This document shows positions 23,265 through 63,875 of a DNA stretch of 64,000 bases, piece by piece; the first letter of the stretch is position 1, and every line of letters starts with the position of its first letter. Location: contig OZ251539.1 in NCBI GenBank assembly GCA_965243135.1, forward strand, positions 4,896,001 to 4,960,000. The letters run 5' to 3'. The translations under genes were made by a program, and so were the position numbers. Origin of the DNA: Alphaproteobacteria bacterium (GTDB lineage Bacteria; Pseudomonadota; Alphaproteobacteria; MPNO01; UBA830). Under the pieces are notes generated by a model. That model saw only the letters and a list, made by a program, of their open reading frames with translations, was not told the origin of the DNA and searched no databases.

Positions 23265-23723
23265 TCAGGCCGCCTCGGCGGACCGGTCGTCGATGACCTT
23301 GCCGGCGCCGCGAATGGCGATCCGGCGCGGTTTCAGGGCTTCGGGGATCTCCCGCTCCAGATCGACGACGAGCAATCCGTCGTTCAGGTCGGCGCCCTTC
23401 ACCTCCACGTGGTCGGCGAGCTGGAAGCGCCGCTCGAAGGCGCGCCGCGCGATCCCGCGATGGAGATAGGCGGCGTCGCCGTCCGCCTTCTCGATCTTGC
23501 CCGCGATGACGAGCTGGCCGTCGCGGACCTGGACATCGAGATCGTTCGGGCCGAAGCCGGCGACGGCCACCGTCACCTGATAGGCGTCCTCTCCCGTCTT
23601 CTCGATGTTGTAGGGCGGGTATCCGTCGTCGCCGGAGGTCTTCTGGGCCGCGTCCAGAACGGACATCAGCCGGTCGAAGCCGACGGCGCTGCGGTAAAGG
23701 GGGGAAAAATCGAACGTGCGCAT
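23265..23723 (-). CDS. ibpA: Small heat shock protein, Hsp20/IbpA family
   Basis: MRTFDFSPLYRSAVGFD, YPPYNIE and YLHRGIARRAFERRFQLA. Confidence 0.93.
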   Translation of the reverse strand: MRTFDFSPLYRSAVGFDRLMSVLDAAQKTSGDDGYPPYNIEKTGEDAYQVTVAVAGFGPNDLDVQVRDGQLVIAGKIEKADGDAAYLHRGIARRAFERRFQLADHVEVKGADLNDGLLVVDLEREIPEALKPRRIAIRGAGKVIDDRSAEAA

Positions 23724-23815
23724 CTCACATATCCTCCTGTCGAGCAACATGTCTGGCGGATCGCCGCGATGGCCGATCCTCGGTCCGCCCGGTCCCGTTC
23801 GGGCACCGGACAGCC
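23721..23815 (-). promoter_or_regulatory. ROSE-type RNA thermometer in the ibpA 5' UTR
   Basis: Minus strand ACATGTTGCTC-GACAG-GAGGATATGT: the UUGCU motif pairs with the SD around a bulged G. GC hairpins lie upstream. Confidence 0.8.
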
Positions 23816-23818
23816 GAT

Positions 23819-23846
23819 ATGTAAGGGCGGAAAACGATATTTCAAG
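23819..23846 (-). promoter_or_regulatory. RpoH (sigma32) promoter of ibpA
   Basis: CTTG-N17-CTTACAT, close to the alphaproteobacterial CTTG-N17/18-CYTATNT consensus. Confidence 0.75.
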
Positions 23847-24039
23847 ACCCGGCGGCGGGCGGCCTTCTCCGGCGCGAATCGGGCGGCCGGCATCGGCTTT
23901 CCGGCGGCGCGCCGAAGAGGGAAGCCGGAAACGAGGCGTTGCGGACCGGAGTCCGGGATCCCGAGGACTGCGCGACTTCCGCGATTGCCCGTCGATCCGC
24001 CCCGTCAGACGAGCATCGGACCGAACGGGCAGTCGGTCC

Positions 24040-24360
24040 GTCGTCGTCGCACCATTTCATGAGGTCGTCGCGGCAGAAGCCGTTGTCGCCGCGAACCCCG
24101 GTTTCCGGCCAACGTCGGCGCTCGACGATCGGCACCATCTCTTCCGTCGAACCCGCCGCAGGATGGAGTTCGGGTGCTGCGAAAGCGAGTTCGCCACCAA
24201 GTCGCAGCGGACGAGCGGCAGGCAGCGGTAGCCGTGGAAGCGACGCTCCTCCTTGCCCCCGTGCAGCGGCTCGTCCGTGTTGTCGAGGTCCGGAACGATC
24301 TCCTTCGGCGGCGACGGCCAAGCATCGAGGAACAGGTTGATCTTGAGATCGGCCATCGCC
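24040..24360 (-). pseudogene. IS1380-family transposase fragment
   Basis: LFLDAWPSPPKEIVPDLDNTDEPLHGGKEERRFHGY-CLPL, then after a frameshift RWPETGVRGDNGFCRDDLMKWCD. Confidence 0.8.
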
Positions 24361-24409
24361 TGAGGGACGGCGACGGGCCGCACCGGGCGTCCCGGCTCGA
24401 ACCGGTCGA

Positions 24410-25207
24410 CGGCCTCAGCGCCTGGCGCATCACGCGCACCCTGTTCGGCGTCGAGCGCACCGTGCTGGTCACACGAGAAACTCTTCGCCGCGCAGTCCCA
24501 AACCCTGCTGCGTGAAATCGCGAAGCGGCGACAGCGGCTGCGGGAACTCCAGAACCAGTTGCGGCGCTGGCGCACCGGGCGCGTTCGCAACGGCAAGCCG
24601 CCGACCGCGGAGGGGACCGCCAAGAAGGTGGCCGGCTGGCTCGAGGCCCGTGAAGGAACCGTTCAAGGTGACGGTCGAAGCCGACGGCGGCCGGCCGGCC
24701 CTTCGTTACCGTTTCGACCGGCGCGCATGGCAGCGGTTGCAACGCACGTTGCTCGGCAAGACCCTCGTCTTCACCGACAACGCCGACTGGAGCGACGTGG
24801 AAATTGTCCGCGGCTACCGGGCTCAGCATCACGTCGAGAGCGCGTTCCGCTCCATGAAGAACACCTGCCACCCTGAGGCCACAGTATCACTGGACGGACC
24901 AGAAGATCGCAGTGCACGTCTTCTGCTGCGTCCTCGCCCTGTTGCTGTGCAATCTTTTGGAGCGCACCGCCGCGGCTCAACGAAGTCGGCGCTGCTCGAC
25001 CAACTCGGTCGAATCCGGGAAATCGGCGTCGTTTATCCCGGCAAGAAGCCCTTTGTGACGTTGTCGCAGATGACCGACGGCCAGCGCGCCCTTTACGAGG
25101 CCCTCGACCTGAAGCGATACCTGTCCGACCTCGCCTGACCGTTAGGCTATACGAAAATCGTGTGATTAAGTGAATCGACTATAAATCTCGCGGTAAACTC
25201 GGGCTAG
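24410..25207 (+). mobile_element. IS1634-family transposase C-terminal remnant (frameshifted) with probable right end near 25207
   Basis: GKTLVFTD...IVRGYRAQHHVESAFRSMK / LRPQYHWTDQKIAVHVFCCVLAL ... QRALYEALDL, spread across frames; AT-rich tail ending ...AAACTCGGGCTAG. Confidence 0.78.
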
Positions 25208-25223
25208 ACGCTGATGTCCTGAG

Positions 25224-25276
25224 CCGCATTTCCCGCACCGGCAGGGATCGAGGATCGCGCCAGGAGGAAGAGCGCG
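25224..25276 (+). repeat. Direct repeat copy 1 (post-stop-codon sequence shared with the NHLP gene 3' flank)
   Basis: CCGCATTTCCCGCACCGGCAGGGATCGAGG...CGCCAGGAGGAAGAGCGCG versus 25871 CCGCATTTTCTCGTGCCGGCAGGGATCGAGG...CGCCAGGAGGGGGAGGAGCGCG. Confidence 0.8.
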
Positions 25277-25340
25277 GAACGGCCCCTGCGGTGCCTCCGT
25301 CGACGCGTCCGCCCCTCGCTCGGGAGGCGTGAAATTAGGG

Positions 25341-25370
25341 TTTACCCCCCCCCCCCGCGCTACGTACGAT
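25341..25370 (+). promoter_or_regulatory. Putative sigma70-type promoter with a C12 homopolymer in the spacer
   Basis: TTTACC (25341-46), 18 nt spacer, TACGAT (25365-70); poly-C at 25345-25356; 80 bp upstream of the NHLP start. Confidence 0.5.
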
Positions 25371-25449
25371 GCCGAAGACTCGATGACGGGTTCCGGCGTC
25401 TCGAACCACGGGATGGAGCATCCGTCCGAACCTTGCAGAGGAGACGATC

Positions 25450-25869
25450 ATGCGCGACGACGTTTACGGGGGTATCCACGATGGCATGCGCCAGCAAGGC
25501 GTCATCCTTCAGGATCTCGCCAATGCCTGCCATTCCGACGAGGATCTGCTGCGCGCGCTTGAGGAGCGTCCGGAGGAAATTCTGCGGGATCGCGGGATCG
25601 ACGTGCCGATGGATGAGGGCATGGACGTGAAGGTCGTCCTCAACACCCGCGACACCTTCCACCTGGCCATGATTCCCGACCCGAACCAGGAGCTCCAGGA
25701 CGAGGCGCTGATGGCGGTCGCCGGCGGCAAGACCAATGGCTGTGCGAGCTCGGGGGGAACCGTCGGGAGCATTCCTTCCACCGCGAGTTCGATCAGCTCC
25801 CTGGGCTGCGCCAGCAGCCAGTCGGGCTGCGCCAGCAGCGTGTCGGACGCGTCGAGGACGAGGCAGTAG
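25450..25869 (+). CDS. NHLP (nitrile hydratase-like leader) RiPP precursor peptide
   Basis: GAGGAG RBS. Leader DEDLLRALEERPEEIL...GIDVP..VKVVLNTRDTFHLAMIPDP.ELQDEALMAVAGG ends in double Gly. 46-aa Cys/Ser/Thr-rich core. Confidence 0.9.
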   Translation: MRDDVYGGIHDGMRQQGVILQDLANACHSDEDLLRALEERPEEILRDRGIDVPMDEGMDVKVVLNTRDTFHLAMIPDPNQELQDEALMAVAGGKTNGCASSGGTVGSIPSTASSISSLGCASSQSGCASSVSDASRTRQ

Positions 25870-25870
25870 T

Positions 25871-25983
25871 CCGCATTTTCTCGTGCCGGCAGGGATCGAG
25901 GGTTGCGGGGCGGCGATCCCAACCCGACCCTCCCCTTGCAGGGGGAGGGTCGAGTGGAGGGCGCCAGGAGGGGGAGGAGCGCG
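25871..25983 (+). repeat. Direct repeat copy 2, containing a palindromic insert
   Basis: Matches 25224-25276 but is interrupted by about 60 bp that include a strong hairpin. Confidence 0.75.
25925..25952. terminator. GC-rich hairpin (REP-like element or terminator) downstream of the NHLP gene
   Basis: CGACCCTCCCC-TTGCAG-GGGGAGGGTCG, a perfect 11-bp stem. Confidence 0.6.
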
Positions 25984-25987
25984 TCAG

Positions 25988-26560
25988 TCACGAATGGATC
26001 CGCCAGCGTCCGGAACCGCGCAATGAGTTTGCGCGCACGACCGAAAGCGGCAAGGAAGTCGCTGCCCACGGGATAGGTGTCAAGGCCTGCGTTCTTCTTC
26101 GCCGCACCGGGAACGCGGCCTGAACGTGCGCACCTGTCCACCAGTACTTCGCGAAAGCGACCGACAGGTGGATCCTGCCGAACTGGCATGCGTCGAGGAC
26201 CTGCTCAATAATGGGTCGCCAAGGCGCTGGGCGATCAAATTTTCTGCGGAAGCGTTCCACCGGGAGACGAGCCGGGCGGAGTGACCGGTTCGGGGCTTCG
26301 AGCGTGACCTGCCCGGACGGCGCCCGGCTGCTCGTCGAGGGCCGGCCTGCAGGTGAAGCTGGCGTCCGGGGTCCGACTCGGCGGGCTGAAATCGACCGGA
26401 CAGCTGCGCCTAGGAGCGCACTCTGCGCGTCGGCATTCGGGAAAGCAAGGGACTGCGCCGCCGGGGGGCGGTCGGACCGTGTCGGTTCGCGTTTCCGGGC
26501 AGCAGCATCCCGACAGGGCGAACGGCCTCAGGATAGAAGATGAGGAATTTTCGTGGCGGT
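25988..26560 (-). pseudogene. Degraded gene fragment of unknown family
   Basis: Protein-like pieces in different frames (KFLIFYPEAVRPVGMLL; IIEQVLDACQFGRIHLSVAFAKYWWTG; LDTYPVGSDFLAAFGRAR) with no continuous ORF. Confidence 0.35.
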
Positions 26561-26673
26561 GGAACGTTCGCCGCGAGGAGGGCGTAGCCCTGACCGCCGC
26601 GCGCACTGCGGCTCAGCCCCGTCGACCGCCGCTCGGAACGGCCAACAACGTCGACGGAAACGGTTCGGTCAAG

Positions 26674-27777
26674 TCAGGACGCTCTCGACGCAACCCAATC
26701 CGCAATGGCGAGAGCGGAAGTCATGCCGGGAGATTCGATTCCGTACATGTTGACGAGGCCGGGAACGCCGTGATCATCGACCGTCTGGATCAGGAAATCG
26801 CGCGCCGCCTCGCCCGGCGCCTGCAGCTTGGGGCGGATGCCGGCGTAACCCGGCTCGATCGTCCCGTCGGCAAGCTCCGGATAGTACTTCCGCACGGCCC
26901 CGTAGAACTTGCCGGCGCGGGCCGGATCGACGTCGTAATCGATCCCGTCGACCCACTCGACGTCCGGTCCGAACCTCACGCGCCCGGCGAGATCGACCGT
27001 GACGTGCACGCCGAGGCCCGCCTTTTCGGGAACCGGATAGACCGGACGCGTGAAGGGAGGCTTGCCGGACAGCGTATAGTAGTTGCCCTTGCAGTAGTGA
27101 AGCGGCGGAACCGTCCCGGAAGGCAAGCCGGAGATCGAGGCGGCGACATCCTGCGCCCACAGCCCGGCGCTGTTGATCACGACATCCGCGGTCACCGACA
27201 TGGGCGAAGCGCCGCCGCAATCGAGGCGAATGCCGTCGTTCGCCACCTGCCCGCCCGTTACCGGCGTCAGAAGGGCGACGACCGCGCCGGCGGACTCGGC
27301 GTCGCCCTGCAACGCAAGCATCATGGCGTGGCTGTCGACGATTCCCGTGGACGGCGACCAGAGCGCGCCCACGCAGCGAACCGAAGGCTCCATGTCCGAG
27401 GCCTGCGACGGCGTCATTCGCTCCAGGTCCGTCACCCCGTTCGCCGCGGCATTGGCCTGAAGCCGATCGAGTTCGGATAGCTGATCCTCGCTCGTCGCAA
27501 CGATGATCTTGCCGCAACGGCGATATTCGACCCCGCGCGAGTCGCAAAAATCATACAGCTTGCGCTTGCCCTCGACGCAGAATTTCGCCTTCAGGCTGCC
27601 TGGAGGATAGTAGATTCCGGCATGTATTACTTCGCTGTGCCGCGAACTGGTCTCCGATCCGATGAGATCCGCCCGTTCGAGCACGATGACTTCCCGGCCG
27701 GAAATCGCCAGCGCCCGCGCGACCGCCAGCCCGACGACTCCGGCGCCGATAACGACGCACTCCACGCGCTCGGTCAC
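26674..27777 (-). CDS. FAD-dependent oxidoreductase, L-2-hydroxyglutarate oxidase (LhgO) family
   Basis: VVIGAGVVGLA, ETSSRHSEVIHAGIYY, YAGIRPK and GIESPGMTS. Confidence 0.92.
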   Translation of the reverse strand: MTERVECVVIGAGVVGLAVARALAISGREVIVLERADLIGSETSSRHSEVIHAGIYYPPGSLKAKFCVEGKRKLYDFCDSRGVEYRRCGKIIVATSEDQLSELDRLQANAAANGVTDLERMTPSQASDMEPSVRCVGALWSPSTGIVDSHAMMLALQGDAESAGAVVALLTPVTGGQVANDGIRLDCGGASPMSVTADVVINSAGLWAQDVAASISGLPSGTVPPLHYCKGNYYTLSGKPPFTRPVYPVPEKAGLGVHVTVDLAGRVRFGPDVEWVDGIDYDVDPARAGKFYGAVRKYYPELADGTIEPGYAGIRPKLQAPGEAARDFLIQTVDDHGVPGLVNMYGIESPGMTSALAIADWVASRAS

Positions 27778-28117
27778 GCTCCGGTTCCCGACCGCCAGTC
27801 GCAAGGCGCCGACCGGACCGCCTCGTCCGGCAGGTTCCCGTTTCCCGGCTCGGGGGCGCGGCGGCGCCTGGAAAGCCGGCGAGAAAACCGGCGCTTCGCC
27901 GGAGCGTTCGGTTCGACGGCGGAACGGTCCGTTTCGCCATGCGCGCGCGCCGTGCGGGCGGGGAACGTGGCTTGACGCTCCGGTTTCCCGCCTTTCGGTC
28001 CTGCGAGCGACCCGCGCCAGCCCCCTCGCTTCGAAGCGCGCCGCACCGCGGCGTCCCGTTCGCCGGATTCCCGGTCTCGCTCCCCGTGCCTCTCCAACTC
28101 CGGCATCCTCCGTCCGC

Positions 28118-61893: not shown

Positions 61894-63618
61894 TCAAGGC
61901 AGGAGAACGGCCTCCATTCCCTTGCGACGGTCGAACGAACGCGTAGCCTGCGCCACGCTGTCCATATTCTTACGAAGAATTATCGCGCAGGCGATGCTTC
62001 CGATAGTCGCATTGCTTGCGGAGCCGAAGCCGGTGCTGAACCGCGAGTGGTCTTCCCGGAAGTTGACGTCGCGGAGGTCCTTGTTCTCGACGCTCCAGTG
62101 TCCGCGGCTGAAGGCCAGCAATTCCCCGGCTCCAGCCTCGGCCAGGGAGGTGATGCCGTAAGCGTGCTCGATGGTTTTCGCGCCGGTCTTCACAACCTCC
62201 CGTTCGCGGGTAACGCGGAAGATCTGCGCGACGTGAGGGTAGTTGATCGCGCCCGGGAGGAGTCTGACGACATGCCGTTGGTCGATGCGTCCGTGGGCGA
62301 GGTCGGCTTCTTCGGAGAAACCGGCGTCCGCCTCCCACTCTATCGTCTCCAGAAGTTCGCACGTCTCGGGCGAGTTGCCCTTGATCGAGAGGAGGTAGTC
62401 GGCGCGATGCGTTTCGACGATGAGCCGGGCCGTGTCCCTGGTCGTGTGAAGGGCATCGAGAGTGATGACACGGCCCGACACGTCGACAGTTTCAAGCAGT
62501 GCGCGGACGGCGGCGATCTCTCCGCCTTCAAAGCCGATGCCGACAAGCGGGATACCCGTGTTGTGCTCGACCAAGGTTGCGATTTCGGCATGAACGGCGC
62601 CGGTGCGGTTGGCCCGGCGGACGCGCTTGCCGTCGGCCGCGATCGCGCGCCCAATCTCAAGGCGTGGCACGGCGTGGCGGACAAGCGCCTTCTTGATCTC
62701 GATCAGGTCAATGTTCGAGACGACGCGGTGGATGGTGGATTTCGAGACGGCCTCGTGAAGTTCCGTCTTCTTGTTCTTCCATGCGCCGAGCGCTTCGAGT
62801 TCCTCCTGGGTCAGCGACTTTGCATACTCGGCCGCCGCCACTGGTCCACGGAACCCGGCCAGCCAGGCAAGCGCGTAGATGCTGAAGACCGACGCCGCGG
62901 AATGTTTCCGCCCTTGCGCCCGGCGAAAGTCGACGATTTCCGCGAATTCGTCGCGGAGCGCGCGGAGTTCGCCGGGCTTTTTCCCCGAAGCGGCCCCTGT
63001 CCGCTCCCACTTCTCGGGTAGTTTCCTTGCGCGCAGAAGGCGCTGCGCATCGCGCCGAAGCGGATGGACGTAAAGCCGTTTGGGCGCGCCGTGCGGTTCC
63101 GTGTACCGGCCATTCGACCTGGAATACCCCTTCGAATCTCCGACATGAATCCAGCCGCCCGCCTTGTAGATGGTGCCCTCGAAACGGGACGGGTCGACAA
63201 AGGTTTCGGCCAACAGCAGCCGATGCCCCCAATGCGCCTGCCAGTCGTCGCTGAGACGGCTCAGCATCCGCGCCATCGCAAAAGACGCCAAGTTGCGGCA
63301 CATGCTCTGCTTCGCCAGCGACACGAAGCGGGTGTTGTTGGCTATCAGGTGCAGACGGCGAAACTGGCTGGCGGGATCCCAGCCGATCCACCGATCCCGC
63401 GGCCGGCACTTGAACGCGCCGGTTTGCCAGCCCGCAAGCGCCAGCCAGCGGTCCCGCCATGCAACCACGTACCGCAAGCCGCGCCCAGCGAAACGCTTGA
63501 ACTCCAGGTAATGGTTCTCGCGAACGAGAGCGTCCCACCTGACCCGTTCGTCCGGTCGAGCGAGGCGAACCTCCACCTCCTCGAGCGAAAAATCTTCCAA
63601 GTCGAGAATCTCAGCCAT
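61894..63618 (-). mobile_element. ISAs1-family DDE transposase with N-terminal DUF4338 (DruA-like) domain
   Basis: N-term HYL...LRY...RDRWIGW...NNTRF...NLAS...ETFVDPSRFEGTIYKAGGW; C-term DFRRAQGRKH, IAADGK, VITLDALH, IKGN, HGRID and RGHWSVEN...DVNFRED. Confidence 0.88.
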
Positions 63619-63875
63619 GACCTGTGAGTAACCGAATCGGTTGACGAAAGCCAGAGAAACATGCAGCGCAGCGAAAATAAGCGCGGAATCACGCCGCAAC
63701 CGTAGCGTGGGATCGCCCTAGCGGAAAAGCCGGCCCCGTCAAGCGTAAAGCTCGGCTTCGCCAAGCGGCGCCGATCCGCTCTCGAAACGGCGGAAAAGCC
63801 GCCGGAATCATCCGCTGAATCGTTGCCGCGCGCCCGGTTCACCGATCCCGCAGCAAACCATCCGCCGTCCCCGCC

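Follow-up and report, generated by a model that had tools for sequence, protein, structure and literature searches.

A locally orphan proteusin-type precursor gene with a triple GCASS core and its probable maturation by a distant enzyme island in a sponge-associated alphaproteobacterium

The 64-kb stretch of DNA analysed here (the window, G000:C1:4896001-4960000) belongs to the genome of an uncultured, sponge-associated alphaproteobacterium, which consists of one contig of 6.10 Mb with 65% GC; five-digit positions refer to the window and G000:C1 coordinates to the host genome. The window contains a gene (25450..25869, + strand) for the precursor of a peptide that is synthesized ribosomally and modified post-translationally (RiPP), with an NHLP-type leader and a core in which the motif GCASS occurs three times. 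With a probability of about 0.65, this precursor is a working substrate of a proteusin pathway of the nostatin/carnazolamide ('dehydrazole') type, the enzymes of which are encoded in an island at a distance of 1.1 Mb. The gene is probably a functional member of a dispersed proteusin library, the products of which would be matured in trans. Its orphan state is thus a local one, since plausible maturases and a plausible exporter for its product are found only at this distance of 1.1 Mb.

The open reading frame (ORF) starts with ATG, contains neither a frameshift nor an internal stop and encodes 139 amino acids. The intact gene, the ribosome-binding site (RBS) and the NHLP leader, all of which had been noticed in a preliminary description based on the DNA letters, were confirmed (Table 1); GGAGAC(G/A) is the form of the RBS region that is kept in the paralogs. 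The codon-position GC content of the frame (0.65/0.47/0.84) is coding-like for a genome of 65% GC, and that of an overlapping antisense ORF (25509-26189; 0.60/0.61/0.77) is not. The leader, which ends in ...ELQDEALMAVAGG (MAVAGG), matches the model TIGR03793 (leader_NHLP) over nearly the full length of the profile (residues 20-93 to positions 6-77 of 77, E 2.6e-11), with a score of 43.2 bits, which is below the curated cutoff of 50.9; as judged from the alignment, it is clearly homologous to the NHLP leader family, although it falls short of the curated threshold. The two glycines of the cleavage motif, G92 and G93, are invariant in all 22 aligned precursor sequences. A recount of the 46-residue core agreed with the earlier one (3 Cys, 15 Ser and 4 Thr, i.e., 22 such residues, and GCASS at 25738-25752, 25804-25818 and 25825-25839); the core furthermore contains six Ser-(Ser/Thr) pairs, three Gly-Cys dipeptides and a single Pro at core position 16. 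A Pfam search of the protein gave no match, and weak matches to the thiocillin-family model NF033482 (21 bits versus a cutoff of 25) and to class II bacteriocin models were rejected as compositional.

Of the 44 window ORFs that were compared with Pfam, none encodes a YcaO protein, a LanM, a radical-SAM enzyme or a C39 peptidase, in agreement with the earlier claim that the 64 kb hold neither maturase nor exporter. The genome-wide search for NHLP paralogs and maturases that had been suggested there yielded about 19 precursors and the enzyme island. The TIGR03793 model has 22 matches in the genome at E <= 1, four of them above the cutoff, which bears out the view of the gene as a member of a dispersed peptide family. 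The approximately 19 precursor-like ORFs are organized in 15 transcription units; this count leaves out one match with an internal TAG as well as two matches on one 301-aa frame, which, on the basis of a motif, probably encodes a genuine alpha subunit of nitrile hydratase. The closest paralogs of the target are 72, 64, 64, 63 and 62% identical to it; the one at 3805815 (72%) scores 51.8 bits with TIGR03793, and three others score 53.7-63.5 bits. Six intact paralogs are located in or at the island (the t3781 trio, p3792, p3806 and c3814), and t3782c, which adjoins a YcaO gene, shares the motif IPSTAS with the target core.

The genome contains two matches to YcaO, one to DUF4135 and two to C39 peptidases, all outside the window. 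Both YcaO matches, the DUF4135 match and one of the two C39 matches fall within the island of about 34 kb (G000 3.781-3.815 Mb), and the second C39 match is located at 0.12 Mb. The two YcaO proteins score 276.9 and 273.5 bits with TIGR03604 (cutoff 219.25), and each carries a TIGR03882 leader-binding domain. The gene for the SagB dehydrogenase (TIGR03605, 155.4 bits versus a cutoff of 78.4) adjoins a YcaO gene, and the NHLP exporter trio, which is not adjacent to the target, is above the cutoffs for TIGR03794, TIGR03796 and TIGR03797 (267.9, 1020.7 and 843.4 bits, respectively). The radical-SAM enzyme scores 315.7 bits with TIGR04517 (rSAM_PoyD), just under the cutoff of 325. The distant enzyme set that had been postulated is present, with YcaO, SagB, DUF4135, radical-SAM and C39 exporter genes; that it acts promiscuously and in trans on the target is what we infer.

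The DUF4135 protein (PF13575, 220 bits) matches TIGR03897 at positions 78-704 of 932 with 253.6 bits, below the cutoff of 304. Its C-terminal 329 residues match the Pfam LanC family PF05147 only at E 0.13, and PF05147 has no match in the genome at E <= 0.01. The structure model of this domain (pLDDT 90.2, from an alignment of 38 relatives) retrieved LicM2 (4.2e-7), CylM (9.5e-5) and LanCL1 (probability 1.00) with Foldseek, at TM scores of 0.3-0.43. By inspection, neither a CHG nor a WCxG zinc-ligand motif was found in the domain, and DUF4135 is present in all 86 relatives of the protein, with a LanC flag in one of the 86. The domain is predicted from the model to be a degenerate LanC-like cyclase, the loss of the zinc ligands being judged by inspection. 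The state of this sole LanC-like domain, the position of each Cys after Gly, a context that is favoured for azoles, and the YcaO and SagB genes beside the dehydratase gene make it very improbable that the target yields a prochlorosin-like class II lanthipeptide with thioether rings between its three Cys and dehydrated Ser/Thr. Such a product would fit the presence of a gene for DUF4135, the LanM dehydratase domain, the richness of the core in Cys, Ser and Thr, and the dispersed library layout, which is like that of the prochlorosins (in part PMC2887384).

The enzyme equipment of the island has published precedents. The nostatin A pathway of a Nostoc sp. comprises the precursor NstC, the cyclodehydratase NstD, the oxidase NstE, the PoyD-like epimerase NstF and the LanM-like enzyme NstG, and it turns the core AASCQTTASSACTTPSCLSSASTASSNSCS into Ala-dehydroalanine (Dha)-oxazole, Dha-methyloxazole and Dha-thiazole triplets, with a modified Pro as the sole D-residue, resulting in a nanomolar cytostatic compound (PMC11583998). 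The cca cluster of Chryseobacterium carnipullorum, which is responsible for carnazolamide, encodes CcaA, the YcaO protein CcaB, the dehydrogenase CcaC, the radical-SAM epimerase CcaD and CcaM, termed 'LanMbC'; every Dha of carnazolamide precedes an azole and Pro15 is in the D-form. More than 50 related clusters, mostly from Proteobacteria and Actinobacteria, are described, and some of them contain two YcaO genes along with several divergent precursors (PMC10676384). YcaO, dehydrogenase, an apparently zinc-less DUF4135 protein, a PoyD-like epimerase and an NHLP precursor are a published makeup, and the four core enzymes found here match it; therefore, the proposal of an undescribed system does not hold. 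Nor is the core, which had not been recognised in the preliminary description, unrecognisable: it represents a variant form of a conserved core, and its X-Ser-(Ser/Thr/Cys) triplets are as in nostatin A (...LSSASTASSNSCS in nostatin A and ...IPSTASSISSLGCASS in the target).

Further features common to the target system and nostatin A are the NHLP leader, the same four enzyme types in the genome and the single Pro in the middle of the core. The two differ in that the target precursor is encoded 1.1 Mb from the enzymes, that its core has 46 instead of 30 residues, that there are additional genes for hydroxylase-family proteins and for an APH-type kinase, and that the host is a sponge-associated alphaproteobacterium and not a cyanobacterium. 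No B12 radical-SAM C-methyltransferase was found among the scanned island ORFs, and therefore isobutyl-Pro is not expected. With the dehydrazoles, the system shares the NHLP precursor with a core rich in Ser, Thr and Cys, the YcaO, dehydrogenase and radical-SAM epimerase genes, the fusion of DUF4135 to a cyclase-like domain without recognisable zinc ligands and, with some of the clusters, the two YcaO genes and several divergent precursors. In contrast to carnazolamide, neither an S8 peptidase nor a methyltransferase was seen in the island, the leader presumably being removed at the GG motif by the C39 exporter, and most of the approximately 19 precursors, including the target, are encoded outside the biosynthetic cluster.

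From these likenesses, the following route would be expected. Transcription would start from the target's own promoter region, which carries an upstream box shared with nearly all paralog units. The leader would dock via its LxxxxL region on the fused E1-like/YcaO cyclodehydratase, which would convert Cys and selected Ser/Thr residues to azolines, and these would be oxidized to azoles by the SagB-type dehydrogenase. The DUF4135 dehydratase with its degenerate cyclase domain would, by analogy, turn each azole-preceding Ser into Dha, so that GCASS would become Gly-thiazole-Ala-Dha-oxazole and PSTASS would become Pro-Dha-methyloxazole-Ala-Dha-oxazole, with a total of up to 9 azoles and 6 Dha. The PoyD-type epimerase would then modify the peptide, with its one conserved Pro as a plausible site, and the NHLP-specific C39-peptidase ABC exporter, together with its HlyD and TolC-like partners, would cleave after GG and export the product.

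The triple GCASS core can be traced in its relatives. A search yielded 30 homologous proteins, the common core of which is KT.GTASS.GT.GSIPSTASSVSSLGCASSQA(T), and GCASS occurs in 13 of the 30 (by our own reading), three times only in the target's own cluster P0001. The target core differs from this common core by a change from Thr to Cys in the first module, a 21-nt duplication and then a different tail. The first GCASS is GTASS in nearly all relatives, and copies 2 and 3 stem from the in-frame tandem duplication; thus, the triple GCASS is not due to chance, because a Thr-to-Cys change and a duplication generated the copies. One GCASS module is typical of the conserved core of the relatives, versus three in the target. 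The core is conserved, in variant forms, in other genomes and metagenomes: it is identical in another alphaproteobacterial genome (that of locus L038), a metagenome contig (X4) has no differences over 25642-25869, which covers the core, and DNA of the locus was detected in sponge metagenomes of several studies.

The gene itself lies in an insertion between hsp20 and an oxidoreductase gene (Table 1), the flanks of which are about 60-110 bp apart in all four same-genus genomes, so that the insertion is absent there. Upstream of the target, the insertion contains a multi-copy repeat, which is probably related to insertion sequence (IS) elements and in which an ORF (23939-24337) has no protein family match, and a truncated IS1634-family element, the ORF of which (24512-25138) represents the C-terminal third only of a transposase: it matches NF033559 over positions 328-482 of 483 with E 2.4e-13 and 50 bits, the cutoff being 100. 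At the DNA level, similarity to the paralog loci by homology extends from the upstream box into the core. Among 40 relatives searched for the target, a match was found in three only, with 42-53% identity at best. The L038 genome carries a cassette with 96.6% nucleotide identity over 667 nt and 417 of 420 identical positions in the coding sequence; an IS481-family transposase gene adjoins it there, and the flanks diverge by about 11-12% (our own count from the alignment). Between the two genomes, nucleotide identity is 72.5% for dnaK-dnaJ and 67% for hrcA (housekeeping range 67-73%), 86% for the YcaO-SagB-DUF4135 block (cluster genes 83-86%) and 96.6% for the cassette. This gradient from housekeeping genes via the cluster to the cassette indicates that the cassette has moved horizontally, and later than the cluster. 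It would have arrived as a small mobile unit reaching from the box to the stop codon, together with IS elements.

It should be noted that several observations weigh against the target being a working substrate of the dehydrazole-type pathway. The scores of its leader and of the island epimerase are below the respective cutoffs, the gene lies among IS remnants with no maturation enzyme nearby, and a look-up of expression data listed no RNA run covering the locus. The dN/dS values of the whole leader versus four paralogs are 0.59-1.03 and thus show no clear purifying selection, and comparison with the L038 ortholog yields three differences (one synonymous, two non-synonymous), too few for a judgement on dN/dS. 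At 5 of 51 conserved columns, the leader departs from the consensus of its subfamily (four conservative substitutions and one gap), versus 0-4 in 18 close relatives. Lastly, the precursor arrays of two other genomes adjoin only an epimerase gene. The insertion of 2.9 kb of IS fragments, the dN/dS near 1, the consensus departures, which are the most among close relatives, the low leader score and the decayed precursors at other places in the genome (beside p3806 and, with an internal TAG, at 3813974) would all fit a stranded copy, which was dropped by IS elements between hsp20 and the oxidoreductase gene, is silent or unprocessed and drifts towards a pseudogene. Nevertheless, ORF, RBS, box, LxxxxL motif and GG are intact, the coding sequence is nearly identical to the L038 copy, which is part of an operon-like array with an epimerase gene and has far more diverged flanks, an independent metagenome contig carries the same allele, and the core changes are in frame and add modification modules instead of destroying them. 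A stranded copy is therefore regarded as unlikely, yet as the least improbable of the rival explanations.

The arrays just mentioned tie the leader subfamily to the epimerase in all three genomes in which an array or island was seen. In the host genome, p3792 is located directly 5' of the radical-SAM gene. At L038, the target ortholog (99% identical) heads three tandem precursors, which are followed by a radical-SAM gene (312.4 bits); at L039, a locus in another genome, four tandem precursors precede such a gene; and both of these enzymes share 83% identity with that of the island. The YcaO, SagB and DUF4135 genes of the L038 genome are found elsewhere (L042), with a precursor trio of their own. 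Because the arrays adjoin the epimerase only, the evidence for epimerisation in this subfamily is more direct than that for azole formation, and it is conceivable that the leader is seen only by the PoyD-type enzyme, resulting in a linear peptide with D-amino acids and neither azoles nor Dha. We consider this improbable: the Ser-Ser/Thr/Cys triplets that make up the target core are those of nostatin A (PMC11583998), the IPSTAS motif is common to the target and the precursor beside the YcaO gene, the radical-SAM gene of the host genome lies on the opposite strand about 1 kb past the end of the DUF4135 gene and in the same island, and the carnazolamide epimerase acts only after azoles and Dha have been installed (PMC10676384). 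The LxxxxL motif has been reported to engage the RRE domains of YcaO proteins and a LahT-type protease (PMC10858898). A complex prediction for the precursor and the island epimerase (score 0.01, mark 0.32, without controls) speaks neither for nor against binding. The N-terminal residues 37-76 of the epimerase (G000:C1:3790162-3791658, L020:12162-13658, - strand) match the 'Os1348 family NHLP clan' (E 3.6e-7) and weakly also Frankia_peptide, and the enzyme may thus itself carry a leader-like segment.

The DNA homology among the paralog loci begins at the box GAAATTAGGGTT, which occurs in 12 exact copies in the genome versus 0.12 expected. The exact box precedes 11 of the 15 precursor units, 70-122 nt before the start codon, and 13 of the 15 when up to two mismatches are allowed; the twelfth exact copy (182930) lies before a gene whose product has an apparent signal peptide. 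Boxes with one mismatch, GACAGATTAGGGTT (230426) and GAAATTAGGGTC (270978), precede the genes of two secreted repeat proteins, which are paralogs and have signal peptides, and therefore the box regulon is wider than the RiPP precursors. The box is presumed to be a promoter or a regulator site. A scan of 25150-26050 for sigma-70-type promoter consensus sequences yielded none, so the box is not a textbook promoter, and the distance between the box and the GCTAnnnT element ranges, by our own count, from about 10 to 20 nt in the different units, so a simple reading as fixed -35 and -10 elements does not fit. The variable spacer contains a poly-C tract, the length of which is 12 C in the target versus 16 C in the L038 copy; the tract is followed by 25 identical nucleotides and is the site of the sole indel within the cassette. 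The tract is 5-16 C long across the paralogs and has at least 11 C (11-16) at 5 of the 15 precursor units, and a tract of 13 C precedes the exporter gene. Gapless coverage of the target tract was found in one X5 contig, and the listed contig pieces of X1 and X4 end at 25343 (assembled contigs only).

The genome contains 55 C/G runs of at least 10 nt, the lengths of which are distributed flatly up to 21. In comparison, runs of 8 nt number only 14 and those of 9 nt only 7, and A/T runs do not exceed 10. Many of the long runs are intergenic and in promoter-like contexts, and one repeat family (at least seven copies among the listed runs) differs mainly in the length of its C tract (10-18). Phase variation via the promoter spacer is known for the fim genes of Bordetella, which the arrangement of box and poly-C resembles; for the precursors, it is a lead suggested by the sequences and not a finding. 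A literature search on homopolymeric promoter phase variation in combination with lanthipeptides returned nothing, which does not mean that the idea is absent from print. A more far-reaching and rather doubtful extension would be that the cassettes (box, poly-C, leader and core) are mobile units, which move between sponge symbionts faster than the enzyme cluster, and that poly-C slippage toggles each of them individually, so that a clonal population would produce shifting combinations of azole-Dha peptides with one enzyme set.

Table 1. Features of the target locus (window positions), of the enzyme island and of two further loci of the host genome
Feature	Position	Strand	Remarks
Insertion, ~2.9 kb	23823..26698		flanked by hsp20 (23268-23750, -) and the gene of a DAO-family oxidoreductase (26677-27804, -)
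Multi-copy repeat	23970..24359		7 other places in the genome at ~70-75% identity (blastn versus own genome)
Truncated IS1634-family element	24406..25207	+	90% nucleotide identity to G000:3026583-3027381
Upstream box GAAATTAGGGTT	25331..25342	+	start of DNA homology with paralog loci
Poly-C tract, 12 C	25345..25356	+	between box and GCTAnnnT element
RBS GAGGAG	25438-25443	+	6 nt 5' of ATG; direct sequence reading
NHLP-type leader, 93 aa	25450..25728	+	LxxxxL motif L82-QDEA-L87; GG cleavage motif G92 G93
Core peptide, 46 aa	25729..25866	+	KTNGCASSGGTVGSIPSTASSISSLGCASSQSGCASSVSDASRTRQ
In-frame tandem duplication, 21 nt	25803..25846	+	Tandem Repeats Finder: period 21, 2.1 copies, 91% matches, score 74
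GC-rich hairpin, 12 bp, no U-tract	25926..25951	+	3' of stop; fold z-score -2.3 for 25866-25990
Island, start			three tandem precursors, then fused leader-binding/YcaO cyclodehydratase, SagB dehydrogenase, DUF4135 protein (~850 aa)
Island, following		opposite	precursor p3792, then directly PoyD-type radical-SAM epimerase
Island, next			Asp/Asn beta-hydroxylase-family gene; exporter set HlyD (TIGR03794), C39-ABC (TIGR03796), ABC (TIGR03797)
Island, next			PhyH-family gene, TolC-like gene, then precursor p3806 between two NlpC/P60 genes
Island, end			second hydroxylase-family gene, APH-type kinase, second YcaO, broken precursor, intact precursor
Secreted-repeat-protein loci	G000:C1:230400-231100, 270978-271900		poly-C tracts of 14 and 11 C

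Around the target, a scan of 25150-26050 for intrinsic-terminator patterns and an Rfam search of 25200-26050 at E <= 1 gave no match. Conserved structure in the 5' untranslated region is weak (-10.3 kcal/mol, compensatory changes in 3 of 17 pairs), and a structured RNA leader is not claimed, the signal from six sequences being too weak. The region just 3' of the target (25877-25983) matches 122540-122691 at 84-90%, beside the second C39-peptidase ABC exporter (120854-121237), which together with two precursors (114537 and 141188) forms a second NHLP locus (G000:C1:114513-141400). Farther away in the window, 61897-63699 (- strand) encodes a 601-aa protein with a Druantia DruA domain and a DDE_Tnp_1-associated domain.

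Elsewhere in the genome, G000:C1:2208813-2210040 is a duplicate of the island precursor trio, with 14 C behind the box versus 13 C in the island; in the two-genome comparison no match to the enzyme block of the cluster was found beside it, and therefore whole precursor arrays are dispersed, too. Decay is seen at G000:C1:3805220-3805596, where precursor fragments with stops lie beside p3806, and at G000:C1:3813974-3814165, where the broken NHLP gene lies beside the second YcaO gene. Two precursors of the subfamily with identical protein sequences (G000:C1:3085117-3085476 and 4192332-4192691) lack the shared box and are instead preceded by CTTGAC...CCCCATAC, which resembles a sigma-32 heat-shock promoter; in another genome, their equivalent (L040:10001-10333) is located between grpE and dnaK.

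The remoteness of NHLP precursors from their maturases was noted as early as 2010 by Haft et al., and the NHLP and Nif11 families comprise, as do prochlorosin-type libraries, many paralogous long-leader precursors remote from modification and export genes, with a dedicated TIGR03794/03796/03797 exporter and a GG cleavage site as found here (PMC2887384). The srp proteusins (SrpE/SrpC/SrpI) are likewise sponge-associated, with an NHLP leader, an LxxxxL motif and YcaO chemistry, but their core has LCCCW at its end and is a substrate of bromination by SrpI (PMC10858898 and PMC9426513); the target core contains neither Trp nor CCC. The chemistry predicted for the present system is azole and Dha formation and epimerisation, and its leaders are of the NHLP and not of the Nif11 type. 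In the prochlorosins, by contrast, lanthionine rings are formed by ProcM.

The family of approximately 19 precursor genes, from an uncultured sponge-associated alphaproteobacterium, joins the small group of azole- and Dha-containing proteusins. The precursors are mostly encoded outside the cluster, and therefore genome-mining tools that are centred on clusters would miss most of the library. The three Gly-Cys-Ala-Ser-Ser modules of the target, versus one in its relatives, constitute a natural test of how the number of modules relates to processing, and the divergence gradient between two genomes indicates that horizontal movement of a precursor gene can take place without that of its enzymes. 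Lastly, the shared box and the variable poly-C tracts offer a testable idea on how a precursor library may be regulated.

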